From the NCBI RefSeq assembly GCF_023169545.1, contig NZ_AP019769.1, positions 570,001 through 602,000 of the forward strand: 32,000 bases of DNA, given 5' to 3'. The position numbers and the translations under genes were made by a program. This DNA comes from Nanobdella aerobiophila (GTDB lineage: Archaea; Nanobdellota; Nanobdellia; Nanobdellales; Nanobdellaceae). Positions 3,643 to 18,849 of this stretch are shown piece by piece. Under the pieces are notes generated by a model. That model was not told the DNA's origin. It worked only from the letters and a program-made list of their open reading frames with translations, and ran no database searches. Numbering within the stretch: the first letter of the stretch is position 1; each line of letters begins with the position of its first letter.

Positions 3643-4779
3643 TTATAGTTCAAACTCCCAGTCCCACATTTCCTTCGCTAATTTTCCATCATACATATAT
3701 TTATTTATATTTATATTTTTTCTTCTATCCTGTATTTCTTTTATAAAAGACCATATCTTTTCTATGGTATAACTCTTTAGTTCGCCAGTAGTTAATTCAC
3801 CCTGTATATACTTTTCTCTTATCTCGAATAATTTTTTATCATCTTCTTCAAATAATACAGATAACCAGAAATAAGAAACATCTATATCTGGATTTCCACC
3901 ATATTTTCTATGCTCTTCTAAAGTAGGCTTTCCACCTGAAAATGCATATTTATTTATCTTTTCTTTTATTGTATCATAATCATCATCTATAAATATTGCA
4001 GATTTCGGATCTGAAGCACTCATCTTGGTATATGGTCCTTGTAATCCCCATACAAACTTAGATAATATCGTAGAAGCCTTATTATATCCAAATTTTGGAG
4101 CAATATCCCTCTGTAATCTAAAATATGGATCCTGATCCACTCCACATGGTATTAATGGTACTCCATTTTCAAAGAATGTTGGTACTATCTGTAATGCTAT
4201 ATAGAATGGTAATCCTATAGTAGATTCATCATCGAAGCCGAACACATTTTTAGCAGTATTTAGATTTATTTCCCTTGCTATATATATTGCAGGTTTGTAT
4301 AGATGATCTATATATTCAGAATTTATAAATATAAATGTTTTATCTGGATTAAACCCTACCGATGCTATTGTTTTTGCATCTTCAATTGCATATTCTTTTA
4401 TTTCGCTATAATTATCCGCTTTTTTCTCCCAATATTTTTCTTCATCTGGTATCTGTATATATAAATTTACATCAAACTTGTCCTGAAGCCATTTAGTAAA
4501 TATAAATGGTATTAGATGTCCTATATGCATCTTACTTTTAGAAGGAGCTCTACCAGTATATAAGAAGAATTTTTTACCATTATTATACTCATTTAATAAT
4601 ATATCAAAGTCTCTATGAGCATAAAAAAATCTTCTTCTTATTAGTACATGTAAATCTCCAACAATATCATACAATAAATTTATTATATTATCATTTAATT
4701 CTTTTACACCAAAAATCTCGACTAATCTTTTATAATCATTTTCAGATTTTATATTAGGATCTATTAATATATTATCCAT
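3643..4779 (-). CDS. trpS: Tryptophanyl-tRNA synthetase, archaeal/eukaryotic type
   Basis: 378 aa. Class I signatures are present: a HIGH-type motif (SKMHIGHLIPF) and KMSAS, the TrpRS variant of KMSKS. Confidence 0.9.
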   Translation of the reverse strand: MDNILIDPNIKSENDYKRLVEIFGVKELNDNIINLLYDIVGDLHVLIRRRFFYAHRDFDILLNEYNNGKKFFLYTGRAPSKSKMHIGHLIPFIFTKWLQDKFDVNLYIQIPDEEKYWEKKADNYSEIKEYAIEDAKTIASVGFNPDKTFIFINSEYIDHLYKPAIYIAREINLNTAKNVFGFDDESTIGLPFYIALQIVPTFFENGVPLIPCGVDQDPYFRLQRDIAPKFGYNKASTILSKFVWGLQGPYTKMSASDPKSAIFIDDDYDTIKEKINKYAFSGGKPTLEEHRKYGGNPDIDVSYFWLSVLFEEDDKKLFEIREKYIQGELTTGELKSYTIEKIWSFIKEIQDRRKNININKYMYDGKLAKEMWDWEFEL

Positions 4780-4780
4780 T

Positions 4781-4789
4781 TTTATAAAT
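4781..4789 (+). promoter_or_regulatory. Candidate TATA box (TTTATAAAT) for tRNA-Ser
   Basis: The motif lies 27-35 nt upstream of tRNA position 1. AT-rich background makes chance matches common. Confidence 0.3.
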
Positions 4790-4815
4790 AATTAAAAAAC
4801 ACTTATAAGTAATAT

Positions 4816-4899
4816 GCCGTGGTGCCCGAGTGGTCCAAGGGGTTTGGCTCGAGACCAAATCTCCGTAAGGAGACGTGGGTTCAAATCCCACCCACGGCG
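4816..4899 (+). tRNA. tRNA-Ser (anticodon CGA)
   Basis: 84 nt. Acceptor stem is GCCGTGG/CCACGGC and the anticodon stem is TTTGG/CCAAA with loop CTCGAGA. It has a long variable arm (CTCC-GTAA-GGAG), T arm GTGGG-TTCAAAT-CCCAC and discriminator G. There is no intron and no encoded CCA. Confidence 0.9.
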
Positions 4900-4916
4900 A
4901 TTTTATAAAATAAAAA

Positions 4917-5546
4917 ATGATATATCTTTTAATGGACGAAGAAACAAAGGAAAACATAATTGATGCTGTAAATAATATAATATATGGATTCAAAATACTC
5001 TTTTTTATTCCAATAATTATAATAATGATATACCTATTTATATTTATAATACCAAATATTATTTATTTAATAAATACTTACATATATATTCTCTACCTAG
5101 ATAATTTTTTTGAGTTTTACATTATGGTAATAATATTATATCTAATTGGAATATTATTATATGCACTATCTATATATGAATTTTCAAAGGGATTTGAATC
5201 TATAAATAATATAAAGGATATAAACATTAAATATCTATTCAAAATTATTAATATTTCTATTATATTATCACTTACTGTAATTTTATCGCCTTTATTATCT
5301 ATTTCAAATATACTATTAGGGAATAAATTAAGATTAATAGGAAAATTATTTAATAATAAAAATATAATCATATATTCAAAATATTTTATTATATCTAGTA
5401 CATCTGGTATTTTATCTATAATCTATTTTTTAAATATTGCAGATATATTAAAATCCATTTTTGGAATTTTTGGTCTTTTACTTGCAATTATATTATTATA
5501 TAGTATTAATAAATTGCATAATGAATTTCAAAGATATATAGTCTAG
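4917..5546 (+). CDS. Hypothetical polytopic membrane protein
   Basis: 209 aa with about 5-6 strongly hydrophobic segments and no recognised catalytic motif. The start may instead be the ATG at 4932 (MDEETKEN), which places TTTTATAA 23-30 nt upstream. Confidence 0.5.
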   Translation: MIYLLMDEETKENIIDAVNNIIYGFKILFFIPIIIIMIYLFIFIIPNIIYLINTYIYILYLDNFFEFYIMVIILYLIGILLYALSIYEFSKGFESINNIKDINIKYLFKIINISIILSLTVILSPLLSISNILLGNKLRLIGKLFNNKNIIIYSKYFIISSTSGILSIIYFLNIADILKSIFGIFGLLLAIILLYSINKLHNEFQRYIV

Positions 5547-6079
5547 ATAATATTTTCCATATTTTCTTCTATTCTATTTAGGTCTTCACCTAGATTATAT
5601 ATCGAATCTCTTCCCTTTAAAGTTATAAGATTTTTATCAACATAATATTCATGCTTAGTTATTAATTTAACTCCCGAATTATTAAAATATTTTATATATT
5701 CTGGAAATTCGTCATAATTATATGTTATTGATCTTCCAGTCAATAGACCCATCTTTAAAAATGCAATTTGTGCAAGCGAGCATAATATAACTGTCTTAAA
5801 AGAATTTAAAAATCTAGTGAATATTGCTTGAATTTCTAGACTAAGAAAATCTTTAAATCCCTCATCTGATATAAATATTATTCTATCGAAATGATTCTCT
5901 TTCATAGTAAATATTTCATTTATATCAAAATCTGGTAATACTTTAGTATTATATATACCTGTACTCACTTCCCTATTTTTATTTGCTATATAATTTGTGC
6001 CATCCAATATATCTAAAAAATTAAATAGATCATCATCATTGAATTTTTTTCTAGGTAGGACAATTAGGTTCATTTTCAT
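5543..6079 (-). CDS. DJ-1/PfpI-like (class I glutamine-amidotransferase-like fold) protein
   Basis: 178 aa. The pattern FDRIIFISDEG...KTVILCSLAQIAFLKMGLLTGRSIT...VDKNLITLKG follows the DJ-1/PfpI layout, including a Cys at the nucleophile-elbow position. The assignment rests on motif resemblance only. Confidence 0.5.
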   Translation of the reverse strand: MKMNLIVLPRKKFNDDDLFNFLDILDGTNYIANKNREVSTGIYNTKVLPDFDINEIFTMKENHFDRIIFISDEGFKDFLSLEIQAIFTRFLNSFKTVILCSLAQIAFLKMGLLTGRSITYNYDEFPEYIKYFNNSGVKLITKHEYYVDKNLITLKGRDSIYNLGEDLNRIEENMENII

Positions 6080-6142
6080 ATTCTAAATTAACTATCTCAA
6101 TATATTAAAATTTTTAATAATAGAAATATTTTATCTTATAAT

Positions 6143-7831
6143 ATGCCAGATAATAATATTAATCTAGATACATTAAGAAATGAGAAAATCGAAGATAATA
6201 AACATAAATATATGGAAATAAAAATTATATTTGACAGTCAAAATATAAAATTTGAACAAATATACTATTGGTTACTTGACTTTATTAGAGACAACTTAAA
6301 AATGAATATTAGTAAACTATCGGACGATTTTACATCATCTGTAGGATCTGCATTTTTCGGAGAAATGAGTTCCAGAGCTTCTGCAGTATTAGCAACTGCC
6401 AGATCCGCAGCAGAATTAATTAATAATCTTACAAAATCAATAATATCGATTCTAGACGAATATAAACAAATACAATCAAAAATTATATTATATGAGAAGG
6501 TTTTATCTAATGATAAAGATGAGGCATACAGCGCATATATAACATTAAAAGATATATGGTTGAACAATGTAGATTCTACTAGAGGAGGAGCAAGTTTATT
6601 TTCTATAGCCAGAGGATCTAGAAATAGTCTAGGATACTCTACTGCACCAGACTTATTTTATCTAACTGAGATAAAATCAGAAGTACAAAAATTATTGGAT
6701 AAAAACCTAATTGGTAAAGCTTTATTTGATAAATTATTTAATGAACCATCAAATATTCCAAGGGATATAGGAGAGGTTAAAAATAAGAAAATTGTAAATG
6801 AAAAGGTTTCTAATATTGTAGATATTAGATTACAAGAATATTACAATTGGTTTGAATCTAATAGAAAATTTTTATATGACAGATATAATCTACTAAAGTC
6901 GTATTTAAAACATCAATTAAGTTCATTATTATATTATACTGAATACGCGAAACCATATTTCAAGTTCGCTAGAAAGTTACTGCAAAATCCAAATCAGCCT
7001 GTAGACATAATAAATGCATTAGAAACTGCAATTATAGATTTATCATTATTGTCTGTAGGAAAAGAAAATTCGATAAATACATATAATGCCGAAAAGGATA
7101 CGGTAGAACAAAAATTGTATATACCTGTATATGATATACAGATAAGATCTAGAGCATTTCCTACAATAATTAATAGAATAGAGAGATCTGGTATGTATAC
7201 ATTTATTGGTAGGACAGATATTAATTTTAGGGTATATCTATTGGAAAAATCAGAATACGAAAACTTAATAATTAATCAAGAAGAAGAGGATTTATTATAT
7301 ATTACAGGACTAACAGATGATTATATAAAAGATATTTCAGATCTAATCTTAGAATCATTTCTTTATGATATTATAAGGAATGATAATAACTTATTAAAGA
7401 TAACTGCAGAGAAATCAAAAGTTACAGAAGCAGATATTAAGAATAATCCATATAAAATAAGATGGTCTAAAGAATTATTAGAAGAATTAGAAAAGGATCA
7501 AAAAATTAAAAAGGCTCTTGGTAGTATTATGTGGATAAAAAAATATTTACCAGAAAATAAAGAAGAAAAAAAGGAAGAAAATAAGGAAAAAAAGAAATCT
7601 GAATCTTCAATTAAGTATATATTTCCATCATTAAACGAGATTTTTGTTAGAATACTAGAATTTATAACAACTTATAAAAAAGATTTGATCTCCATATCAA
7701 AGGATATAAAGAAAAAACAGTTTCAAAAAGAAAGAGATGATGCTATGAATGATTTAAAAGATAAAACTATAGATACTGGTTGGAAGATTTATACCTCATT
7801 TAAGAAAACATTTGGCATGCTAACTTATTAA
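6143..7831 (+). CDS. Hypothetical 562-aa soluble protein with no recognisable family
   Basis: Long ORF with the codon style of neighbouring genes. It has no TM segments and no Walker or catalytic motifs that I can recognise. A Lys/Glu-rich low-complexity stretch (PENKEEKKEENKEKKKSES) lies near the C-terminus. The next gene follows after 22 nt. Confidence 0.6.
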   Translation: MPDNNINLDTLRNEKIEDNKHKYMEIKIIFDSQNIKFEQIYYWLLDFIRDNLKMNISKLSDDFTSSVGSAFFGEMSSRASAVLATARSAAELINNLTKSIISILDEYKQIQSKIILYEKVLSNDKDEAYSAYITLKDIWLNNVDSTRGGASLFSIARGSRNSLGYSTAPDLFYLTEIKSEVQKLLDKNLIGKALFDKLFNEPSNIPRDIGEVKNKKIVNEKVSNIVDIRLQEYYNWFESNRKFLYDRYNLLKSYLKHQLSSLLYYTEYAKPYFKFARKLLQNPNQPVDIINALETAIIDLSLLSVGKENSINTYNAEKDTVEQKLYIPVYDIQIRSRAFPTIINRIERSGMYTFIGRTDINFRVYLLEKSEYENLIINQEEEDLLYITGLTDDYIKDISDLILESFLYDIIRNDNNLLKITAEKSKVTEADIKNNPYKIRWSKELLEELEKDQKIKKALGSIMWIKKYLPENKEEKKEENKEKKKSESSIKYIFPSLNEIFVRILEFITTYKKDLISISKDIKKKQFQKERDDAMNDLKDKTIDTGWKIYTSFKKTFGMLTY

Positions 7832-7853
7832 TAACAAAATTTTTATAATATAT

Positions 7854-9914
7854 ATGCCTGAAGAAAAAAAATATCCTAAAGAATTATTTAATAGACCTAT
7901 AAGTACTAGTACAAATCCTCAGAATCCAAATCAATTAAAAGAGTTTGAAGAAAAGGTAAGACAGGGTTATTCAGGTGTAGAAGTACAAACAGAGAGTTTC
8001 GAAAGATGGAAAACCATACCAAAAATAATTTTTGAAGAGATAGCAAGAAATGCAAGAGTAAATAATGTAGATTTATCTATCCATGCACCAGAAAACGATT
8101 TCCAAATAATGGGTATACATACTGGGAGAGATGAAAATGCAGGAAAAATTGACAGAGAAAGTAAAAAAAATATAAGCTATGCCGTATCTGCTATTTTTGA
8201 TGCCTCAAAAACTATGTCTGAAATATATAATAAACCAATAAAAGTAAATATTCATGGAGGGGATATATCTGGAACTATATGGACTAAAGATTATGAAGAA
8301 GAATTAAAGAAAAAGTTATTAACTGACTATAATTATAGAAAAGAATTTGCTGAAAAATTATATAAAATGGGGTTCATAACTACTCAACAATATAATAATA
8401 TATTAAATAGAAATATAGATACTGAAACCTTATATAATAATATACCATCATGGGCTTTAGCAGAATCAGAACTTGTATATCTTAAAAGAGGAGATGAATA
8501 TATTCCAGTAAATAAAATAGGTATTGAAAAAGGATTTTCAAAGATCATAAAAGAAGGAATAAAAGAAAGCGTGGTAGATAAATTATATGAAAGTAATGAA
8601 AAATATTGGATGTCGATAATAAGTGAAATAGAAAAAGGTTTTATGCAGATTTCAAAGACATATAAAAATGATATGAATAATTTCTTTCAAAATATATTAT
8701 ATAAAGCATATTATAGCGCTGGCGATACTAGATCAATAGGAGATTTATTATATACTATAAAAAATTATGAAAATATAATAAATGGATTTAAAGCATATAT
8801 AGATATATTAGAATCTAATATAGATTCTATAGAAGATAATCAATTTAAAGAAAAAGTCAAGACTGAAATAGAAACATGGAAAAAAGGTTTAGAATATTCG
8901 TACAATAAAATAAGCCAATATGATAAAGATATATCAAAATTATTAGAAAAAGGAAATTTTTATGAAGATGAAAATACAGTTAGACAATTCATTTTCAATA
9001 GATCTATTGAATTAGTTAATAATATGAAGGACTCATATGAATTTATGAAACAAATACTATATATAATTAAAAATACTGTATTTTCTGATAGATTTGTTCC
9101 ATTAATAGTTCCATTTCAAGAAGTAGCCATAAATGAAGGACCAAAAAATTTAGCAAATGGAGTTAGATTACTAATAGAAAGAGAAAAACAAAAAGACCCA
9201 CAATGGGCGGAAAAGATAGCAGATTACTTACCAGATATTGTTATAGAAGAATCTTATCCAGGATCACCTGCATCAAGACCTGATCTATGGAAAAAATTAA
9301 TTGATAATATAAAAGTTGAATTAAAAAAAGTAATAGAAGAAAATCCAGAGTTAAAGAAAAAAATAGAAGAAAAATATAAAGATATAAATAATTATATAGA
9401 TGAAAAAGTAGGCGCGAATCTAGATGTTGGACATATAAAAATGTATGAAAAATATGGATATACAAAAGAAGATATATTAAAATGGGTAGAAGAAATAAAA
9501 CCAGAAATTAAACATTTACATGTTCATGAAGCACAGTGGGGAGGGGATACACACCTACCACTGGGACTTGGGTGGGATGATATAATTGCATCAGAATTAG
9601 AAAAGTTACAAGATATATTGCCGAATATATCTATTGTTCATGAACCAGGTGGATGGTATTCATCTGGACTTTCTCAATCGTTCGGTTCTGAATATAATTA
9701 TTATATAAATGGAATTAACTCTACAGATATTTATGGATTAAATTATGGAGAATCATTTAATACAATTATACCATATGGAACTAGATCGATAACTCCAAAT
9801 TATATACAATATACACAATATTCACCACTATCATATAATATTTTTACTCAATTACCATTAGACCTTGGTGGATCTAGAAAAAGAGAAACATTTTCTGGCC
9901 TAGGAACCGATTAA
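7854..9914 (+). CDS. Endonuclease IV / xylose-isomerase-like TIM-barrel (AP endonuclease family 2-like) protein with a large internal insertion
   Basis: 686 aa. Candidate metal ligands appear in Nfo order: H77 (SIHAPE), H134 (NIHGGD), E465 (VIEES), D524-x2-H527 (LDVGH), H556/H558 (HLHVHE), D565-x-H567 (GDTH) and E597 (VHEPG). About 300 aa of helical sequence separates the second His from the Glu. The C-terminal tail is rich in Tyr, Asn and Ser. Confidence 0.55.
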   Translation: MPEEKKYPKELFNRPISTSTNPQNPNQLKEFEEKVRQGYSGVEVQTESFERWKTIPKIIFEEIARNARVNNVDLSIHAPENDFQIMGIHTGRDENAGKIDRESKKNISYAVSAIFDASKTMSEIYNKPIKVNIHGGDISGTIWTKDYEEELKKKLLTDYNYRKEFAEKLYKMGFITTQQYNNILNRNIDTETLYNNIPSWALAESELVYLKRGDEYIPVNKIGIEKGFSKIIKEGIKESVVDKLYESNEKYWMSIISEIEKGFMQISKTYKNDMNNFFQNILYKAYYSAGDTRSIGDLLYTIKNYENIINGFKAYIDILESNIDSIEDNQFKEKVKTEIETWKKGLEYSYNKISQYDKDISKLLEKGNFYEDENTVRQFIFNRSIELVNNMKDSYEFMKQILYIIKNTVFSDRFVPLIVPFQEVAINEGPKNLANGVRLLIEREKQKDPQWAEKIADYLPDIVIEESYPGSPASRPDLWKKLIDNIKVELKKVIEENPELKKKIEEKYKDINNYIDEKVGANLDVGHIKMYEKYGYTKEDILKWVEEIKPEIKHLHVHEAQWGGDTHLPLGLGWDDIIASELEKLQDILPNISIVHEPGGWYSSGLSQSFGSEYNYYINGINSTDIYGLNYGESFNTIIPYGTRSITPNYIQYTQYSPLSYNIFTQLPLDLGGSRKRETFSGLGTD

Positions 9915-9946
9915 CCTTTTATAAATATTTTTAATTAGTCTTATAT

Positions 9947-11308
9947 ATGGATATACTTGAAAAAATATCTTCATATTTACCATCTATAGAAGGTCCAAAA
10001 AAGATGGTCTCTCTGAGACATAAGATATATAATACATTATTAGTGATAGTATTATATACTATTCTATCTTCTATACCATTATTTGGTATATCTCCAGAGA
10101 TTTCAGCAAGATTTGAACAGTTATTATGGGTATTTGGATCCTCTCTTGGTACATTGGCAAGTGTTGGCATAGCACCAATAGTACTATCAGGAATTTTTAT
10201 GCAATTATTGGTTGGACTAGGAATATTTAGCATAAATACATCTACAGATGATGGAAAAGAAAAATTTGATAACTATACAAGAGGATTAGCATTCCTTTTC
10301 ATAATATTAGAATCTATAGTATTAATATCCAGTGGAAACTTACAACCAAATTTTCTACTTGGCATAAATCCTATATTAATATATATTATAATGTTTATAG
10401 AGCTAATTCTTGGTGGTATTATAATACTACTATTGGATGATTTTTCATATAAATACGGGATAACATCCGGAATAAATATAATTATATTCGCAATTATAAG
10501 TATTGCCCTTTCATTAAGATTATTCAACCCTTTATCACCACCCACAAGCATACAGTCATTATTTTCCCAACCTACGGGGTATATACCACAAGCTATATTA
10601 TATTTTATAGAAGGAAATAGTATACTTGGTTTATCTTATTTATTAGCAACAATAGCCACCTTTGGAATATTAATATTTGCAGTATATTTACAATATTTAA
10701 AGGTAGAAGTACCATTATTATATTTTAATATAAATGGAGAAATAATTAGATATCCTATACAATTATTATATACATCTGTAATTCCAGCAATATTTATCTA
10801 TGCATTGATAGTGGAAGTACAATCTATATTACATTTTAATACAAACAATATTATAGTACAAATATTATCTCCACCAAATTTAATAATAAATATAGGACAG
10901 TTCGGATTAAATTGGATTACAAATCCTATAAATATAATACACATAATTATATATTTCTTAATATTTACAATAGGTGGAATGTTTATATCAAAATTCTGGA
11001 TACATGCAATAGGTTTAGATCCTAAAAACTTAGCAAATTATTTAACAAAGGATCCCAATTCTCCAATGTATACTAGAGATCCAAGGATAATAGAGAGTAC
11101 ACTAAGGAAATATATAGATCCAATAGGCTATTTATCTGGATTTTTAATGGGTTTATTAGCCTCTTTAGGAGATATATTAAGTTCTGCTGTATCTGGAGTT
11201 AGCATATTATTATTAATAGTAATCGCATCACAAATATATAATGATTTAAATAGGGCAAATGCTACATATTTATTGCCAATAATTGGCAAATATTTGAATA
11301 AAAAATGA
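9947..11308 (+). CDS. secY: Protein translocase subunit SecY
   Basis: 453 aa with about 10 TM segments. The archaeal SecY N-terminus is present (LPSIEGPKK...IPLFGI), and the gene sits in the conserved position before L34e/L14e. Confidence 0.9.
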   Translation: MDILEKISSYLPSIEGPKKMVSLRHKIYNTLLVIVLYTILSSIPLFGISPEISARFEQLLWVFGSSLGTLASVGIAPIVLSGIFMQLLVGLGIFSINTSTDDGKEKFDNYTRGLAFLFIILESIVLISSGNLQPNFLLGINPILIYIIMFIELILGGIIILLLDDFSYKYGITSGINIIIFAIISIALSLRLFNPLSPPTSIQSLFSQPTGYIPQAILYFIEGNSILGLSYLLATIATFGILIFAVYLQYLKVEVPLLYFNINGEIIRYPIQLLYTSVIPAIFIYALIVEVQSILHFNTNNIIVQILSPPNLIINIGQFGLNWITNPINIIHIIIYFLIFTIGGMFISKFWIHAIGLDPKNLANYLTKDPNSPMYTRDPRIIESTLRKYIDPIGYLSGFLMGLLASLGDILSSAVSGVSILLLIVIASQIYNDLNRANATYLLPIIGKYLNKK

Positions 11309-11916
11309 TAGATTCATTATTCTTATATATATTAATACTAGTTATAATAATAAATATAGCAATAAAGTTCTTAGAGAAATATAATAATATAAAAGAGCAT
11401 ACTCAAAAGTTATCAGAAATGCAGAAAAAATATATGGAAACTATAAAATCTGGAAAGATAGATGAAATAAGCAAAATTAGTGATGAATTTACAAAAATAT
11501 ATTCTAAAGTTATGAAGCATACAATAATGGTCACAATAGTTGGAATAGCTGTATTAATAATAATAACTTATGTATTTTCTACAGGTTTTGTTCCAAAAAT
11601 TGTAAATAATAGTACTACTATATATATAAATAATCCAGTATTACATAATCAAGATTTTGCAATATACTATAATCACACATTTTTAGGATTTTATACTGCA
11701 AATAATAACATAATAACACTAAACAATAGTTATATAATCAATAAATTATCAATAAATCCAATTACATCTACCTTACCATTTAAAATACCTATACTAAATG
11801 TAAATTGGCTAAGTCCAATAATTACATATATTATTCTATATCTAATAACCCAATTGTTAATATTATTATATACAAGATTTATAAAAAAATCTCCAAAGAT
11901 AAATAAAAATGGCTAG
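11305..11916 (+). CDS. DUF106/EMC3-like membrane protein (archaeal YidC/Oxa1-type insertase candidate)
   Basis: 203 aa with TM1, then a charged coiled segment (KLSEMQKKYMETIKSGK), then TM2, then LPFKIPIL...W..YIILYLITQ. It occupies the position between secY and rpl34e where DUF106 sits in many archaea. Its start overlaps the secY stop. Confidence 0.55.
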   Translation: MIDSLFLYILILVIIINIAIKFLEKYNNIKEHTQKLSEMQKKYMETIKSGKIDEISKISDEFTKIYSKVMKHTIMVTIVGIAVLIIITYVFSTGFVPKIVNNSTTIYINNPVLHNQDFAIYYNHTFLGFYTANNNIITLNNSYIINKLSINPITSTLPFKIPILNVNWLSPIITYIILYLITQLLILLYTRFIKKSPKINKNG

Positions 11917-12832: not shown

Positions 12833-12904
12833 GGGCCCGTAGTCCAGTGGTAGGATTTTGGCCTCGCTAGCCAAAGATCCCGGGTTCGAATCCCGGCGGG
12901 TCCA
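12833..12904 (+). tRNA. tRNA-Ala (anticodon CGC)
   Basis: 72 nt. The acceptor stem GGGCCCG/CGGGTCC contains the G3:U70 alanine identity pair. Anticodon stem is TTGGC/GCCAA with loop CTCGCTA, T arm is CCGGG-TTCGAAT-CCCGG, and the discriminator is A. No CCA is encoded. Confidence 0.9.
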
Positions 12905-13116: not shown

Positions 13117-13482
13117 ATGTTCTTAGAAGAAAATGCTAAATACTTTGAAGAAAAAGCAAAAGAAGCTTACAAAGAAGGAAAATATAAATTTACACTATTT
13201 TTTACAGAACAAGCTTTACAATTATATTTAAAATATATTTTATATAAAAAATTTGAAGAGTATCCTAAAACACATAAATTAAAAGAATTATTTGAAATTT
13301 CAAAAAATATAAATAGTAAATTTATTGATTTCTATAATGAAAATTCTGATGTAATAGATCTAATAGAAGAAGCATATATTACTTCTAGATATTTAGATAA
13401 AGAATATAGTGAAAAAAGTGCAAAAAAGTCAATAGAATTAATTAATAAATTCAAAGAAGAATTCAAGGAATGGATAAAATAA
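13117..13482 (+). CDS. HEPN domain protein (PF05168-type)
   Basis: 121 aa, all-helical. It has the pattern ...EEYPKTHKLKELF...LIEEAYITSRY typical of archaeal HEPN partners of minimal nucleotidyltransferases. It overlaps the MNT gene by 13 nt. Confidence 0.75.
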   Translation: MFLEENAKYFEEKAKEAYKEGKYKFTLFFTEQALQLYLKYILYKKFEEYPKTHKLKELFEISKNINSKFIDFYNENSDVIDLIEEAYITSRYLDKEYSEKSAKKSIELINKFKEEFKEWIK

Positions 13483-13817
13483 CTGAATTTCATATATATT
13501 TAGTGGATCGATATAAAAAATTTAGAGATAAAAAATATTTAGAAAGATTAAAAGAAATTATAAATAATTATTTTAAAGATAAATTATATAAAATAATAAT
13601 ATTTGGAAGCTATATAAAAGGAAATATGCATCCTTTATCTGATATAGATATTGCAATAATATTAAAAGAAAATATAGATGAAGAAGAAAGAATGAAATTT
13701 TATAAACTAATAAATAAAGAATTTGGACTAAATCCATTTGAATTTCATATAATTAGTATAGATCAATGGGAAGAATGGTATAAAAAATTTATAGATGAGT
13801 ATAAAGAACTAAACTAA
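13470..13817 (+). CDS. Minimal nucleotidyltransferase (MNT, Pol-beta superfamily)
   Basis: 115 aa. It carries the signature IIIFGSYIKGNMHPLSDIDIAII (G-S-x9-13-D-x-D). Confidence 0.8.
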   Translation: MDKITEFHIYLVDRYKKFRDKKYLERLKEIINNYFKDKLYKIIIFGSYIKGNMHPLSDIDIAIILKENIDEEERMKFYKLINKEFGLNPFEFHIISIDQWEEWYKKFIDEYKELN

Positions 13818-16800
13818 TAATAATACCAAAGAAATTATCCCGACTAATAAGGGATAGTATATATTTTCTGATGCAACAAGGGAAGAATTAGATGAAGGAT
13901 AATTAACTACCAGATTATATTGCGCATCTCCTAAACTATTTCCATTTAAATTAAAATTAAATAATAAATTAGAAGATCCTGGATATAATGGTAATACGGA
14001 AAATTGTAGTATATAGGACTGATTTGGTTGCAGTTCAGATATATTTATATTATTAATATTTTGTACAGGTAAATTATTATATAATAATTCCGGCATATCA
14101 CCCATCTGTTGTAAACTAATACTAATATTATTTAATGTTACATTACCTATATTAGTTATATTTAATATCATATAATACGCAGGACTATTTAAATAGAAGT
14201 TGAGTGTATTCCCTATAGGATACTCTTTCTGATTAATATTGATAGGTACTACATATGCTTGTAATTGTACTATTCCATAATATGTTTCTGTATATATACC
14301 CTGTTCATATTCTAATGTTTCTGAAGAACATTGACCATTATTAGAACAAACCTCTATATCAATATTTAATAAGTTTGGAGGCGTATATGGTATATTAACT
14401 AATACAGAATTTTGATTATAAAATGTATTTGAATATCCATTATTAGTTGAAATAGATATATTGTTTATACTATAATAAGAATATCCAGTAATGTTCATTT
14501 CTAGGCTATTATTAGTAGAATTTAATAAATATATGTATATTAATGGTTGAGAAATACCAGCTTGATTTGACAAACCAACTATATTTATTATTTTAGAATT
14601 ACAATTTGATAATCCTGCATTTGTACTAGCACATACTGTTAAATTTGTATAATTTGAATACGGTAGATTTACTGTATAAGAAAATGTATTTGAATTAACT
14701 GTTGTTGAATATACTTGTGTTCCATTATCATATATTACTACATTATTTATACCTGATGGATATTCTGATGCATATATATTTGCAATTATTGATGTATTAG
14801 ATATATTTAATAATGTAATTGAAATGTTGGGTAAATTATTATCTATATTTATTGTTAATGAATTTGAATTAAGACAATTTCCATTATAACATGTTTGTCC
14901 ATAAACAGTATAAGAAGCTGGAGAAGTTAGTATGCATGAAGAATTAAAATCAGTGAAAACAGGCAAAGAAGAAGAGCAATAAATATTATTACTTACAAAT
15001 AATGTATAATTTTGTCCGCATCCTTGAATATATACATTGATAGGATTTGTTGACCATCCTGAATTGTAGTTTGAACTTATAGAAATTTGTTGTTGAATAT
15101 TATAAGTAAATATTGAAGATGAAGAAGAGCTAGGAGTAGATGCCGTTATTACAATAGAATATGAACCTGGAGGAGCTGTTGGAGAAGGAGATATTATTAT
15201 TGGTACTGAACAAGAATTTCCTGTAGTAGTACATGAATTTCCATTTGGAAATGAGCAAGTTATATCATTATATGATGGATTTATTGCTGAAATAGAAATC
15301 GAAGGCATAACCCCATTTGGAGGATAGGCACGGACTCTAACCCAATAGAAAGGACCAATTGTTGCTTGTGAACCCTGAGAATTTATTCCGCCAATTGGAT
15401 ACGCAGAAGTTGGCAAGGTTGTGGTAATTTTTTCTGAATTAACATAATCATAGGCAAAAAGAACGTAACCTGATGTTGGGAAGTAAATTGTCCAGACATG
15501 ATAACCTGTAGCTGAAATTCCTCCGCTTATGCCAGTTGTGTATGCACCGCTAGCACCACTAAGACCAGTTTGTCCAACGGCATTAGTCGTGTCTCCTTGG
15601 TTATTATTAGTATTTATTGTCCATCCTGCATCTACGCCTGCATTTCCAGTTCCAGACTGCACAAATCCAAATGCAGCATTATCGGTGCTTGTTGCTGGAG
15701 GGAAATCCCCATAAAAATCTAATATACTATTGTTATTATAGCCAAATGTAGATGAAGTATAAGCATAACCACTATATGCAACCGATAGTCCATTATTCAC
15801 AGTATAACTACCACTTCCAGTCCACCCACTTGGCAAACTCGTTCCAGCAAAGTTCCAATAGTAATTAAATACATCTTGTCCATTATCATATAATCCATAG
15901 TTTGGACATGTACTCATATTTGTATATCCTTCCGAATAACAATACCAATATGCAGAAACACCTGTGTAAGGGTAATATTGAGAATAATAATTAGCTGAAG
16001 TAGATCCAATATACATATATATTGTATAATTACTATTTGCAGGAATACCATTTGGTAGATTTATCCACCAGACGTCACAGTTAACTCCATTTATGTTATC
16101 CTGACCTTCGTACCATGAATATATATTCGGAGAACTACCAGAAGTTGTAAAATAAACATTAGATCCATTAGAATTAATTTCATTAAATAATGTTGGATTA
16201 TCTACATAAGCAAAATTATTACCAGCATTCGGGTTTCCATTACAAACTGCAATATCTTGTTGAAATGGAGCTGGAGTTGCTACAGATTGAGAATTTGATA
16301 TTGTTATCATACCACCAGGAAGCAAACAATAGAAATTAACTGCTGTTTGCTGAGAATAAGGATTATTTAAATTTGATGTTGCTCCTACATTTACTGAAGT
16401 TCCAGGACAAGATGTATAAGAAGACTGCGATAATGAAACCGAAGTAACTGAAACTGCAGGTGCGATTGAAATCGAAGGCATAACCCCATTTGGTGGATAT
16501 GCACGGATTCTAACCCAATCATAATATATATGAGAACCAGGTCCTGCATCTGCATAATTATCCCAATAGATAGTCGTTGCACTACTTATTGGATTTGCAT
16601 TTACTGTTCCACTATATCCTCCTGATGTAGAATATAACTGTGGTGCAATATATGCATAATAAGATGAAGAACCTGCAATATATGTTAAACTTGCGTATCT
16701 CCAATTTGAATTTGCAGTTCCTTGTGCATTTTGATCGAAAGTCATCGAACCAGAACTTAGATAATCCTGATCGAAATAATCTCCACCAAATTGTGTGCCT

Positions 16801-17576
16801 ACATAGATTGCACTACTACCTGACCCTTCAGTAATATAGTTTCCAAGTCCAGTAGTACCAGTATTAGAACCTCCACCATCAGACTGAAATAGAGTCTCCG
16901 TAATATAACTTCCTGCGCCTAATGATTTTGCGTTATATGCTAGATAAGATATAGAACTAGATGACTGGCTATAATCTAAAACATCTATTACATTTCCATT
17001 TGGTCCTGTTGTAGTAGTAGTAGATAATGAGCCACCAGAACCTGACAAAGTAAAATCACCTGTAGGCGCATTTCCATTAAAGTATAGATCAAATACGTCA
17101 TTACCATTATCATATTCTGCATAAGTAGGACTTAATTGAGGAGCTTCACCTACATAAGGAGGATATTGAGAATAATAATTAGCTGAAGTAGATCCAATAT
17201 ACATATAAATAGTTACTTGACTATTTGCAGGAATTCCATTTGGTAAATTTACCCACCAGACATCACAAGATACTCCATTAATATTTTCTTGACCTTCATA
17301 CCATGAATATATATTTGGAGAACTACCAGAAGTTGTAAAATAAACATTAGATCCATTAGAATTAATTTCATTAAATAATGTTGAATTATCTACATATGCA
17401 AAATTATTACCTACACTAGGATTACCATTACAAATAGCAATATCTTGTTGGAAAGGTGTTGGAGTTGCTACAGATTGAGAATTTGTTATTGTTATACTAT
17501 AGGAACCTTGAGAGAAAATAATGTGTGATATAAATATCAAAAAAGAGATTAATAATAAAAATACTACTTTTTTCAT
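13809..17576 (-). CDS. Secreted 1255-aa surface protein: signal peptide, 2x (DUF2341-like + lectin/LamG-like) modules, Ig-like/CARDB-like repeats, C-terminal membrane anchor
   Basis: The N-terminus MKKVVFLLLISFLIFISHIIFS is signal-peptide-like. The module ITI.NSQS...FYTTSG...SWYEG...DVWW.NLPNGIPANS..TIYMYIG follows the DUF2341 pattern and occurs twice (aa 28-371 and 424-762), each copy ending W-V-R-[IV]-R-A-Y-P-P-N-G-V-M-P-S-I-S-I. The protein is rich in Ser, Thr and Asn with many N-x-S/T sequons, and its last ~20 residues are hydrophobic. Confidence 0.8.
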   Translation of the reverse strand: MKKVVFLLLISFLIFISHIIFSQGSYSITITNSQSVATPTPFQQDIAICNGNPSVGNNFAYVDNSTLFNEINSNGSNVYFTTSGSSPNIYSWYEGQENINGVSCDVWWVNLPNGIPANSQVTIYMYIGSTSANYYSQYPPYVGEAPQLSPTYAEYDNGNDVFDLYFNGNAPTGDFTLSGSGGSLSTTTTTGPNGNVIDVLDYSQSSSSISYLAYNAKSLGAGSYITETLFQSDGGGSNTGTTGLGNYITEGSGSSAIYVGTQFGGDYFDQDYLSSGSMTFDQNAQGTANSNWRYASLTYIAGSSSYYAYIAPQLYSTSGGYSGTVNANPISSATTIYWDNYADAGPGSHIYYDWVRIRAYPPNGVMPSISIAPAVSVTSVSLSQSSYTSCPGTSVNVGATSNLNNPYSQQTAVNFYCLLPGGMITISNSQSVATPAPFQQDIAVCNGNPNAGNNFAYVDNPTLFNEINSNGSNVYFTTSGSSPNIYSWYEGQDNINGVNCDVWWINLPNGIPANSNYTIYMYIGSTSANYYSQYYPYTGVSAYWYCYSEGYTNMSTCPNYGLYDNGQDVFNYYWNFAGTSLPSGWTGSGSYTVNNGLSVAYSGYAYTSSTFGYNNNSILDFYGDFPPATSTDNAAFGFVQSGTGNAGVDAGWTINTNNNQGDTTNAVGQTGLSGASGAYTTGISGGISATGYHVWTIYFPTSGYVLFAYDYVNSEKITTTLPTSAYPIGGINSQGSQATIGPFYWVRVRAYPPNGVMPSISISAINPSYNDITCSFPNGNSCTTTGNSCSVPIIISPSPTAPPGSYSIVITASTPSSSSSSIFTYNIQQQISISSNYNSGWSTNPINVYIQGCGQNYTLFVSNNIYCSSSLPVFTDFNSSCILTSPASYTVYGQTCYNGNCLNSNSLTINIDNNLPNISITLLNISNTSIIANIYASEYPSGINNVVIYDNGTQVYSTTVNSNTFSYTVNLPYSNYTNLTVCASTNAGLSNCNSKIINIVGLSNQAGISQPLIYIYLLNSTNNSLEMNITGYSYYSINNISISTNNGYSNTFYNQNSVLVNIPYTPPNLLNIDIEVCSNNGQCSSETLEYEQGIYTETYYGIVQLQAYVVPININQKEYPIGNTLNFYLNSPAYYMILNITNIGNVTLNNISISLQQMGDMPELLYNNLPVQNINNINISELQPNQSYILQFSVLPLYPGSSNLLFNFNLNGNSLGDAQYNLVVNYPSSNSSLVASENIYYPLLVGIISLVLLLV
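15291..16307 (-). repeat. Internal duplication, copy B (aa 424-762)
   Basis: See copy A. The C-terminal halves of the two copies are much more diverged, but both end in the same YPPNGVMPSISI motif. Confidence 0.85.
16464..17495 (-). repeat. Internal duplication, copy A (aa 28-371 of the 1255-aa protein)
   Basis: Its first 116 aa differ from copy B at 13 positions by my alignment. Long identical DNA runs are shared, for example ccagaagttgtaaaataaacattagatccattagaattaatttcattaaataatgttg in both copies. Confidence 0.85.
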
Positions 17577-17802: not shown

Positions 17803-18849
17803 ATGGGTTTAGCAGAAATAAGAGAATTAATAAAACCAGTAATAAAAGAAGTCGATTTATCATATTTATCTGGGAAAATCGTCGCATTAGACGCATTTAA
17901 TGCATTATATCAATTTCTTGCTGCAATAAGACAACCAGACGGTACGCCTCTAAAGGATTCTAAAGGAAGAATTACATCACATTTATCTGGATTATTTTAT
18001 AGAAATAAAAATTTAATTGAAAATGGAATTAAATTAATATATGTATTTGATGGAAGACATCCAGAATTTAAAAAGAAAGAACAAGAATTGAGAGAAGAAC
18101 AAAGAAAAAAAATGGAAGAAAAATATGAAATTGCAAAAGAAGCGGGAGAAAAAAATTTAAAGAAGTATGCAGAATTTACATCTAAATTAGATTACAATAT
18201 GATAGATGAAGCTAAAGAACTATTAAAAGCAATGGGCGTACCGTATATACAAGCACCATCAGAAGGAGAAGCAGAAGCTGCATATTTAGTTAAAAAAAAT
18301 ATAGCAGATTTTGTAGGATCACAGGACTATGATTCTTTATTATTTGGAGGAACTAGAGTTGTCAGAAATATAACGATCAGCGGAAAAAGAAAGATACGTG
18401 GAGTTGAAGTTAATATATCTCCTGAAATAATAGAATTAAAAGATGTTTTAAATTATCTAAATTTAAATCAAGAAAAATTAATAATTTTAGCTCTAGTAGT
18501 TGGCACAGATTATAACCCAGACGGAATTAAAGGTATAGGTATAAAAAAAGCATATGAAATCGTAAAAAAATATGATGATCCAGAAAAAATATTTAATTAT
18601 ATTAATTGGGATAAATATTATGATATATCATGGAAAGAGTTAGAAAAATTTTTCTTAGATCCGCCGGTAGTAGATATAAATAAAGAAGATATAAAGTTTG
18701 GAGAAATAGACGAAGAAAAGATAAGGAAAATATTAATAGATAATCATGACTTTTCAGAAGAAAGAGTAAATAAATCTATAGAAGAGTTAAAGAAATCATA
18801 TAAGCAAGGATCACAGAAAAATTTATTATCTTTTTTTCAGAATGGGTAA
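17803..18849 (+). CDS. fen: Flap endonuclease 1 (FEN1)
   Basis: 348 aa. The N-terminus MGLAEIRELI...LSGKIVALDAFNALYQFL...PDGTPLKDSKGRITSHLSGLFYR is the canonical XPG-N region. The XPG-I acidic cluster (SEGEAEAA...GSQDYDSLLFG) and a helix-hairpin-helix region are also present. Confidence 0.9.
   Translation: MGLAEIRELIKPVIKEVDLSYLSGKIVALDAFNALYQFLAAIRQPDGTPLKDSKGRITSHLSGLFYRNKNLIENGIKLIYVFDGRHPEFKKKEQELREEQRKKMEEKYEIAKEAGEKNLKKYAEFTSKLDYNMIDEAKELLKAMGVPYIQAPSEGEAEAAYLVKKNIADFVGSQDYDSLLFGGTRVVRNITISGKRKIRGVEVNISPEIIELKDVLNYLNLNQEKLIILALVVGTDYNPDGIKGIGIKKAYEIVKKYDDPEKIFNYINWDKYYDISWKELEKFFLDPPVVDINKEDIKFGEIDEEKIRKILIDNHDFSEERVNKSIEELKKSYKQGSQKNLLSFFQNG

Follow-up and report, generated by a model that had tools for sequence, protein, structure and literature searches.

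A conserved gene pair of Nanobdellota encodes a member of an unnamed protein family and a TIM barrel with endonuclease-IV-type candidate metal ligands

Nanobdella aerobiophila MJ1 is a cultivated thermoacidophilic ectosymbiont with a 669-kb genome. In the 32,000-nucleotide stretch of this genome analyzed here (contig NZ_AP019769.1, positions 570,001 to 602,000; hereafter the window), two long open reading frames (ORFs) lie 22 nt apart in the same orientation, as an earlier reading of the sequence (the original prediction) had described: ORF1 at 6143–7831 (+), encoding 562 aa, and ORF2 at 7854–9914 (+), encoding 686 aa. ORF1 is 100% identical to the annotated "hypothetical protein MJ1_0680" of N. 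aerobiophila, and ORF2 is 100% identical to a protein of the same species that carries the NCBI product name "AP endonuclease" (AP, apurinic/apyrimidinic). The pair adjoins secY, as had been noted; secY (9947–11308) lies directly 3′ of ORF2 and starts 32 nt past its end. At the ~25% GC of the window, a stop is expected at ~9% of random codons, and by our own arithmetic the chance of 562 stop-free codons is (0.912)^562, or ~1e-23; given their lengths, the two are therefore not chance ORFs. The N-termini of both proteins are kept in alignments of homologues, which indicates that the start codons are right. We detected no signal peptide and no transmembrane segment in either protein (maximum Kyte-Doolittle 19-residue mean of 1.52 for ORF1 and 1.26 for ORF2), in agreement with the earlier description of ORF1. 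We also observed that ORF1 and ORF2 of Nanobdella, 1,248 residues combined, contain no cysteine.

ORF1 had been taken for an orphan, a view that did not survive a wider search. On the evidence of sequence similarity, it is a member of a large unnamed family that spans the phylum Nanobdellota (Nanoarchaeota). Among 1.84 billion cluster representatives, searched exhaustively with a profile, at least 366 relatives had E ≤ 1e-3 and 254 reached E ≤ 1e-10; most are 450–550 aa long. When one genome per GTDB species was scanned with a sub-group ORF1 alignment, we found at least 579 ORF1-like loci, in records titled Pacearchaeota, Woesearchaeota, Nanoarchaeia, and Nanoarchaeota. The family comprises at least three to four sub-groups with 20–30% mutual identity, and the motifs E-P-x-Y-F-W-x-L-D-F, W-A-K-P-Y-L, and a C-terminal Y-K-K-A-H-G-M are common to them. 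Three genome records with bacterial titles ("bacterium", Dojkabacteria, and Patescibacteria group; L021, L025, and L081) also carry the archaeal ORF1/ORF2 cluster; their contigs were probably mis-binned or mislabeled.

The statement that ORF1 has no assignable family did hold. ORF1 gave no significant match in Pfam, NCBIfam, PADLOC, or PHROGs, and no match among PDB sequences when it was searched as a single sequence and with two profiles. Defence-system and phage-family scans were negative, and we therefore dropped a mobile or defence origin. The AlphaFold2 (AF2) model of ORF1 is mediocre (predicted local distance difference test score, pLDDT, 65; predicted template-modeling score, pTM, 0.43) and consists of long helices, a K/E-rich linker, and a terminal helix, together with a four-stranded sheet at residues 297–368, so that the "helical protein" of the original prediction is not purely helical. 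Nor does ORF1 end in a Lys/Glu-rich tail, as had been proposed: the K/E-rich segments are internal (at ~470–487 and 515–545), and the last ~20 residues form a conserved aromatic/hydrophobic motif (W547, Y550, F553, K554, F557, and L560). Foldseek searches with the model found nothing significant in PDB or BFVD (best E 0.19 and 0.025, respectively; TM score ~0.1), a weak test of the fold because of the quality of the model. Hits to ssRNA-phage maturation proteins, Cyt toxins, and START-like proteins were rejected on TM scores of ~0.1.

ORF2 is the more readily placed of the two. Its sequence places it among the TIM barrels of the xylose-isomerase/AP-endonuclease-2 superfamily (PF01261), as originally proposed. 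Its superfamily membership is already in public annotation, under the names "AP endonuclease", "AP endonuclease family enzyme", and "sugar phosphate isomerase/epimerase". The PF01261 model matched full-length ORF2 in two stretches with 29.0 bits (E 1e-6; gathering score 31.1), and the score rose to 31.7–32.2 bits, above the 31.1 cutoff, once the insertion described below was removed. It also matched 20 of 20 insertion-free ORF2 cores taken from across the phylum (best E 1.5e-16). A second protein search, word-indexed and run with the alignment of the ORF2 family, added nothing to the first. The AF2 model is good (pLDDT 78.5, pTM 0.79) and places barrel strands at residues 41–45, 73–77, 130–134, 461–465, 519–524, 552–558, and 593–597; the strand-7 region (560–575) was modeled with low confidence. 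With this model, Foldseek ranked TIM-barrel ketose epimerases at the top, namely D-tagatose and D-psicose 3-epimerases (probability 1.0, E 2e-3).

From the alignments and the AF2 model, ORF2 is divided into four parts on the forward strand. Residues 1–145 (7854..8288) form the N-terminal part of the barrel, with strands 1–3 and the invariant residues E43, H77, and H134. A helical-bundle insertion with a beta-hairpin, located between strands 3 and 4, occupies residues 146–455 (8289..9218). The barrel resumes with strands 4–8 at residues 456–620 (9219..9713), which carry E465, D524, H527, H556, D565, H567, and E597. Residues 621–686 and the stop codon (9714..9914) form a tail that is predicted to be disordered (pLDDT <50) and that contains an invariant motif.

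The original prediction had listed candidate metal ligands in the order and local spacing of those of Escherichia coli endonuclease IV (Nfo), and we found the candidates where they had been placed and all nine positions conserved. In a phylum-wide alignment of the ORF2 family (n = 59), E43, H77, H134, E465, D524, H527, H556, and E597 are invariant, while positions 565 and 567 read D-x-H in 18 of the 59 sequences and H-x-E/D in 41. Two histidines, H556 and H558, had been offered as alternatives at one strand; H556 is invariant, and it is the ligand candidate there because H558 varies across homologues. In the AF2 model, the ligand residues sit at the C-terminal ends of successive predicted strands. 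The nine positions correspond one for one with Nfo H69, H109, E145, D179, H182, H216, D229, H231, and E261, and the 32 residues from D565 to E597 equal the distance from D229 to E261, as checked on an Nfo sequence verified to be identical to PDB 1QTW. In an hhalign alignment that is itself non-significant (E 0.27), D524, H527, H556, D565, and H567 were placed opposite Nfo D179, H182, H216, D229, and H231.

The insertion is present in 59 of 59 family members (586–703 aa; another homologue is 721 aa long) and matched no Pfam family. Its pLDDT is mostly 84–96, with dips at 226–234 (<50) and near 361–380. Conserved residues mark the base of the insertion (N248/E249/W252 and P420/E423/A425) and the distal helices are variable, a pattern that suggests, on the predicted model, a projecting arm whose conserved part caps the catalytic face. 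A relationship of the insertion to ORF1 was considered and rejected, as we found no similarity between them. At the C-terminus, the AF2 model has a low-confidence tail (612–686) with the motif F664-x2-L667-P668-x2-L671-G672-G673 ... F680-S-G682; the family consensus, within the last ~40 residues, is [FWY]-x2-[LM]-P-x2-L-G-G ... F-S-G. All 58 ORF2-like proteins have this motif, and the other ~2,340 ORFs of the loci lack it. A conserved motif that AF2 models as disordered fits a docking peptide, and we infer such a role for the ORF2 tail.

The prediction that the two genes would be syntenic in related genomes was borne out. In seven loci of the Nanopusillaceae type, an ORF1-like and an ORF2-like gene are directly adjacent and are followed by genes for SecY, a YidC-like membrane protein, and L34e. 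Strain YN1 and Nanopusillus acidilobi, both with complete genomes, are among these, as are relatives with as little as 35% identity. The pair of N. acidilobi is Nps_03000 (ORF1) and Nps_03005 (ORF2). Between Nanobdella and either YN1 or N. acidilobi, identity is 57–67% for ORF1 and ~50% for ORF2, values in the range of those for L34e (64–66%) and TruD (69–70%). Further away, in Pacearchaeota and Woesearchaeota, an ORF2-like gene was found in 54 of 84 fetched loci (200–326 bits with a hidden Markov model of the ORF2 family). Where at least 5 kb of sequence was available downstream of the ORF1-like gene (49 loci), the ORF2-like gene lay downstream of it in 38, nearly always on the same strand and ~0.5–4 kb away. 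The usual order in these groups is ORF1-like gene, a gene for an acidic protein, ORF2-like gene, and often a gene for a ~290-aa nucleotidyltransferase, the latter directly 3′ of the ORF2-like gene in 41 loci. On this comparative evidence from sequence, the link between ORF1 and ORF2 is ancient. The link to secY is not: in Pacearchaeota and Woesearchaeota the pair is located elsewhere, so that the position next to secY is lineage-specific and confined to one order.

The protein encoded between the pair in most Pacearchaeota and Woesearchaeota loci (L005–L084; for example, L014 3764–4390) is 170–230 aa long, acidic, E/K-rich, and of low complexity. It has short conserved motifs, Y-N-A-P-D-Y-S, and L-P-F-E followed by a K/R-rich C-terminus. 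We found no counterpart of this middle gene in the Nanobdella window.

Comparison of six lineages also bears on transcription. A promoter-like A/T box, TTAAAATTTTTAA, lies at 6105..6117 (+), ~26–38 nt 5′ of the ORF1 ATG, and a AAAATTTTTA box stands at an equal distance upstream of ORF1 in YN1 (L085) and N. acidilobi (L086); we regard the box at 6105..6117 as a putative promoter at the start of an ORF1-ORF2 transcription unit. By contrast, the 22-nt junction (7832..7853, +) has no conserved promoter element. The gap between the two genes in the six lineages is 22, 25, 24, 35, 1, and 1 nt, with no conserved A/T or TATA-like box, and the junction sequence is unconserved except for the end of the ORF1 coding region; both ORF1 and secY have a conserved box ~25–38 nt upstream. 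A TATA-like box of ORF2's own within the 22-nt junction was considered and withdrawn, since it is unconserved across the six lineages. Gaps of 1–35 nt without a conserved box, together with the boxes at ORF1 and secY, point to a single transcript that covers both genes and to another promoter at secY. ORF1 and ORF2 are therefore likely co-transcribed, in support of the earlier reading. The secY box, TTTTATAAATATTTTTAATTAG (9917..9938, +), marks the boundary just outside the module. It is conserved in relatives and differs little among Nanobdella, YN1, and N. acidilobi, though SecY diverges by 25% in amino acid sequence; it is a strongly conserved candidate promoter and suggests that secY is transcribed from a promoter of its own.

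We tentatively favor, at a probability of about 0.38, the reading that the pair is a specialized nucleic-acid (DNA or RNA) end- or backbone-processing phosphodiesterase complex and not a housekeeping AP endonuclease. ORF1 and ORF2 form a linked pair conserved across Nanobdellota, which would be co-transcribed and vertically inherited. ORF2 belongs to the archaeal MJ1311-like branch (arCOG01895) and keeps the nine endonuclease-IV-type His/Asp/Glu ligand positions at the ends of strands 2–8; it would be a metalloenzyme with its catalytic site intact. Because the full ligand set is kept, ORF2 may hold a two- or three-metal centre and, by analogy with Nfo, hydrolyze a phosphodiester bond by metal-activated water. 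The helical arm of ~310 aa that separates strands 3 and 4 probably covers the catalytic face with its conserved base, and the C-terminal peptide would be a docking motif. ORF1 would be the non-enzymatic alpha+beta adaptor or scaffold subunit of ORF2, in a physical complex with it.

Several observations favor a nucleic-acid role. Among the superfamily members we inspected, the full ligand set is otherwise found only in Nfo and MJ1311; of E. coli Nfo, FrlC, UlaE, and Hyi, Nfo alone has it, as the strand-2 His and the D-x-x-H His are missing from FrlC, and UlaE and Hyi lack other ligands; MJ1311 shows equivalent motifs in its alignment with the ORF2 core profile. In a study that lists MJ1311 as the predicted EndoIV homologue of Methanocaldococcus jannaschii, an archaeal protein only 13.5% identical to Nfo proved a true AP endonuclease and an EndoIV-like paralogue without the ligands was inactive (Kiyonari, 2009; PMC2770678). 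The phylum shares essentially no metabolism yet keeps the pair, and a macromolecular substrate is the more plausible one for a phylum-wide enzyme. In a 2026 survey of 208 complete Nanobdellota genomes, the shared single-copy core consisted almost entirely of information processing and a few unnamed proteins. Finally, charged low-complexity segments abound in the associated proteins, and K/E-rich linkers and an acidic in-between protein would be typical of nucleic-acid-associated factors.

A specialized role is preferred over a housekeeping one because related genomes carry canonical endonuclease IV and exonuclease III. In the N. acidilobi gene table (Wurch et al., 2016; PMC4935971, Suppl. Data 1), Nps_03000 is an "Uncharacterized protein" without an arCOG and Nps_03005 is an "AP endonuclease family enzyme" of arCOG01895, class R. 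The same table has a separate entry for Endonuclease IV, Nps_01285 (arCOG01894), a protein that proteomics detected, and further entries for Exonuclease III, Endonuclease V, and UDG. ORF2 is thus an additional paralogue, and the idea of ORF2 as the only AP endonuclease of the phylum, which we considered, is contradicted for N. acidilobi by this table. An EndoIV of 293 aa is abundant in the proteome of Nanoarchaeum equitans (PMC3149612); what this shows for that species is the presence of a canonical EndoIV. We found no canonical nfo in the 1.22 Mb of fetched loci, which is uninformative as these only sample the flanks. The repair function suggested in the original prediction is weakened by the coexistence, in N. 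acidilobi, of the same pair with the four enzymes of that table.

A number of points weigh against the phosphodiesterase complex. The nfo (TIGR00587) and UvdE models of NCBIfam matched neither ORF2 nor any of the 20 cores. No Nfo chain was among the PDB sequence matches of ORF2 or among the best 50 Foldseek matches of its model, where ketose 3-epimerases were at the top. Against a profile of the insertion-free ORF2 core, E. coli FrlC scored 28 bits and UlaE 10, whereas Nfo scored -0.3 and Hyi -0.6; hhalign of ORF2 with Nfo gave E 0.06–0.27. On inspection of motifs, the DNA-insertion/wedge motif of Nfo, H69-D-S-Y72-L73, is replaced by an invariant H77-A78-P79 in ORF2. The weak NCBIfam matches below the cutoff go to sugar epimerases, isomerases, and CbiR: fructoselysine 3-epimerase in 14 of the 20 cores (best E 3.5e-7), CbiR in 7 of 20 (best E 2.9e-7), and also hydroxypyruvate isomerase, L-ribulose-5-P 3-epimerase, and IolE. 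Single "extra" ligands each occur in some sugar enzymes and so are not unique to Nfo, as FrlC has the strand-3 His, H-x-H, and D-T-H..G-E-G. As to the complex itself, contact between ORF1 and ORF2 is deduced from gene linkage, and the ORF1 model is poor (pTM 0.43). With the repair enzymes of N. acidilobi and N. equitans in place, no repair gap needs filling. Nps_03000 and Nps_03005 were undetected in the N. acidilobi proteome (PMC4935971), although this says little, because only ~200 proteins were detected. On sequence grounds, then, ORF2 is not a member of the Nfo family, and of the description "endonuclease-IV-like" the ligand positions stand and the family relationship does not.

A bolder and more doubtful extension of the nucleic-acid reading is that ORF1, ORF2, and, in most orders, the acidic protein constitute a Nanobdellota-specific machine in which an EndoIV-type multinuclear centre has been recruited outside base-excision repair. 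ORF1 would then be an adaptor with a new fold, and the C-terminal peptide of ORF2 the coupling element; candidate activities are RNA maturation, a DNA transaction peculiar to symbionts, and protein-tail processing. Such a machine would be a phylum-defining function, since hundreds of species retain the pair despite their minimal genomes, and one of the few such functions without a name.

The best-surviving alternative to a nucleic-acid substrate, which we nonetheless consider unlikely, is that ORF2 acts on a small molecule, either as a sugar or sugar-phosphate epimerase/isomerase or as a CbiR-like phosphodiesterase, with ORF1 as a regulatory or localizing partner. In its CbiR-like version, ORF2 would remodel a host-derived metabolite, cofactor, or lipid head group, and these symbionts do rely on host-derived compounds. 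The best sub-family signals (fructoselysine 3-epimerase, CbiR, and other isomerases or epimerases), the score of FrlC relative to Nfo, the H-x-H and D-T-H..G-x-G of FrlC, the ketose 3-epimerases at the top of the Foldseek list, and the JGI label "sugar phosphate isomerase/epimerase" on several homologues all speak for it. CbiR is a cobamide-remodeling phosphodiesterase, so the superfamily also hydrolyzes phosphodiesters other than DNA (10.1101/2020.09.02.280537). However, all of the sub-family matches lie far under the curated cutoffs (15.6 bits for ORF2 with the CbiR model, cutoff 105), no ketose epimerase or sugar isomerase family of NCBIfam reached its curated cutoff with ORF2, and none of FrlC, UlaE, and Hyi showed the full set of nine ligands. 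The loci have no conserved metabolic neighbors; the genes found there instead are for tRNA synthetases, for enzymes of tRNA modification, for a nucleotidyltransferase, and for SecY. It would also be unusual for a small-molecule isomerase to carry an arm of 310 aa and a docking tail and to have an obligate partner.

It is improbable that ORF2 is the base-excision-repair AP endonuclease of the lineage, that is, an Nfo orthologue with an acquired insertion. Its NCBI name, the conserved nine Nfo-type ligands, and a FEN1 gene nearby (17803–18849) are in keeping with that idea. So is the listing of its closest solved relative, MJ1311, as the predicted EndoIV homologue of M. jannaschii (PMC2770678). 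Orthology fails, however, because the EndoIV of N. acidilobi belongs to arCOG01894 and the ORF2 homologues to arCOG01895, a different orthologous group. The genomes that have a separate EndoIV, with exonuclease III as well in N. acidilobi, the lack of a match to TIGR00587, and the absence of the Y72/L73 wedge motif from ORF2 argue in the same direction.

We give still less credence to the view that ORF2 is an MNIO/DUF692-like multinuclear non-heme-iron oxidative enzyme that modifies a peptide, with ORF1 as its substrate-binding partner in the manner of MbnC for MbnB; the substrate would be the C-terminal tail of ORF2 itself or the acidic in-between protein of Pacearchaeota and Woesearchaeota. 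MNIOs have a TIM-barrel fold and a His/Asp/Glu ligand set very similar to that of EndoIV, need an adjacent partner protein, and act near the C-termini of peptides. An obligate adjacent partner, an invariant C-terminal peptide unique to ORF2-like proteins, and, in Pacearchaeota and Woesearchaeota, a small intervening ORF with short conserved motifs are all seen here. Yet PF05114/DUF692 was not among the matches listed for the 20 cores and for full-length ORF2, and ORF1 bears no similarity to the known partner families. Cysteine is the usual target of MNIOs and is missing from both Nanobdella proteins, and MNIOs need O2, while most Pacearchaeota and Woesearchaeota inhabit anoxic settings.

Least credible of all is a purely structural pair, in which ORF2 would be a pseudo-enzyme barrel that serves with ORF1 as a scaffold in a cytoskeletal or envelope-associated assembly: the long helical arm, the K/E-rich linkers, the conserved aromatic/hydrophobic C-terminus of ORF1, the position by secY and a YidC-like gene in Nanopusillaceae, and very weak, non-significant resemblances of ORF1 to Cyt1A (Foldseek E 0.19) and CAMP factor (E 0.12) are outweighed by candidate ligands that are invariant in >50 divergent sequences, which argues for retained catalysis, by the lack of transmembrane segments and signal peptides, and by the absence of the secY linkage outside one order.

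Other features of the window surround the pair. Upstream, and divergent from ORF1, is a DJ-1/PfpI-like gene of 178 aa (5543–6079, −) with a weak Pfam hit, called "putative intracellular protease/amidase" in N. acidilobi; a gene of this kind is found upstream of ORF1 in those Nanopusillaceae-type loci that extend that far. Right after secY, a 203-aa membrane ORF (11305–11916, +) has no Pfam match. The counterpart in N. acidilobi is annotated as an OxaA/YidC-type insertase (arCOG02673), and on that basis a SecY gene and a YidC-like gene are adjacent here. A HEPN-domain ORF (13117–13482, +; PF05168, E 3e-23) overlaps the next ORF by 13 nt; the latter encodes a minimal nucleotidyltransferase (13470–13817, +; PF01909/PF18765), and together they form a HEPN/MNT pair. 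A 1255-aa ORF (13809–17576, −) has a weak DUF2341 match and a YN1 counterpart with faint PKD/DUF2341 matches, and probably encodes a surface protein. The GC content is 0.35–0.365 at 15001–17000, compared with ~0.25 elsewhere in the window. A Translin-family protein (1950–2528, −; PF01997, E 3e-12), also present in N. acidilobi, adjoins TruD and a class-I tRNA synthetase (PF00579), which is labeled "tryptophanyl-tRNA synthetase" in N. acidilobi. A 73-aa ORF (4772–4993, −) overlaps tRNA-Ser(CGA) (4815–4900, +) on the opposite strand and is almost certainly spurious. A tRNA-Ala(CGC) is located at 12833–12904.

Nanobdellota genomes are among the smallest cellular ones, and the pair takes up ~3.7 kb of a 669-kb genome and recurs in at least 579 species. 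Identifying its substrate would fill a blank in the DPANN minimal gene set and extend the known range of the endonuclease IV/xylose isomerase barrel. We found no published account of the split barrel, of the conserved tail, of the family to which ORF1 belongs, or of the linkage across the phylum, and the papers on N. aerobiophila and YN1 do not mention the ORF1 and ORF2 genes. Both organisms are in co-culture, which makes experimental testing possible.

Among known systems, no characterized member of the superfamily has the inserted arm of 310 aa, the invariant peptide at the C-terminus, or the linked partner of unrecognized fold. Nfo (1QTW; archaeal PfuAPE/PF0258) belongs to the same superfamily as ORF2 and has the nine ligand positions in the same order, and the local motifs N-x-H-x-G, I-E-N, G-x-x-x-D-x-x-H, H-x-x-D, D-x-H-x-x-x-G-x-G, and the strand-8 E are common to the two; yet ORF2 has 686 aa compared with 285, has an obligate neighboring partner, and gives no significant sequence match to Nfo. 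FrlC has in common with ORF2 the strand-3 His, the strand-6 H-x-H, and D-T-H..G-E-G. The ketose 3-epimerases and sugar isomerases of PF01261 hold one metal with an E-D-H-E core, and FrlC, D-tagatose 3-epimerase, UlaE, Hyi, and IolE are, unlike ORF2, single-domain metabolic enzymes of catabolic operons. MbnB/MbnC offers an analogy as a TIM-barrel multinuclear metalloenzyme with an adjacent, co-transcribed, non-enzymatic partner; the pair differs from it in having no PF05114 match, no cysteine substrates, likely anaerobic hosts, and an ORF1 unrelated to the partners. CbiR, also of PF01261, has conserved His/Asp/Glu metal ligands and hydrolyzes a phosphodiester, but its substrate is a cofactor, it is encoded among cobamide-biosynthesis genes, and it has no insertion, tail, or partner (10.1101/2020.09.02.280537). 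The nearest system is MJ1311 (PDB 3wqo), which alone among solved proteins matched the ORF2 core profile significantly (E 2e-10, 43.7 bits); in this match, profile positions 66–267 align with MJ1311 residues 72–264 over ~200 residues and H-A-P, G-x-x-x-D-x-G-H, H-V-H-x-x-D-N, D-x-H..G-x-G-N, and I-E are common to both. MJ1311 is an uncharacterized single domain of 293 aa from M. jannaschii, without the 310-aa insertion, the conserved tail, or a known partner gene; in contrast to this ~290-aa architecture, the ORF2-like proteins, at 586–721 aa, carry both the insertion and the tail.

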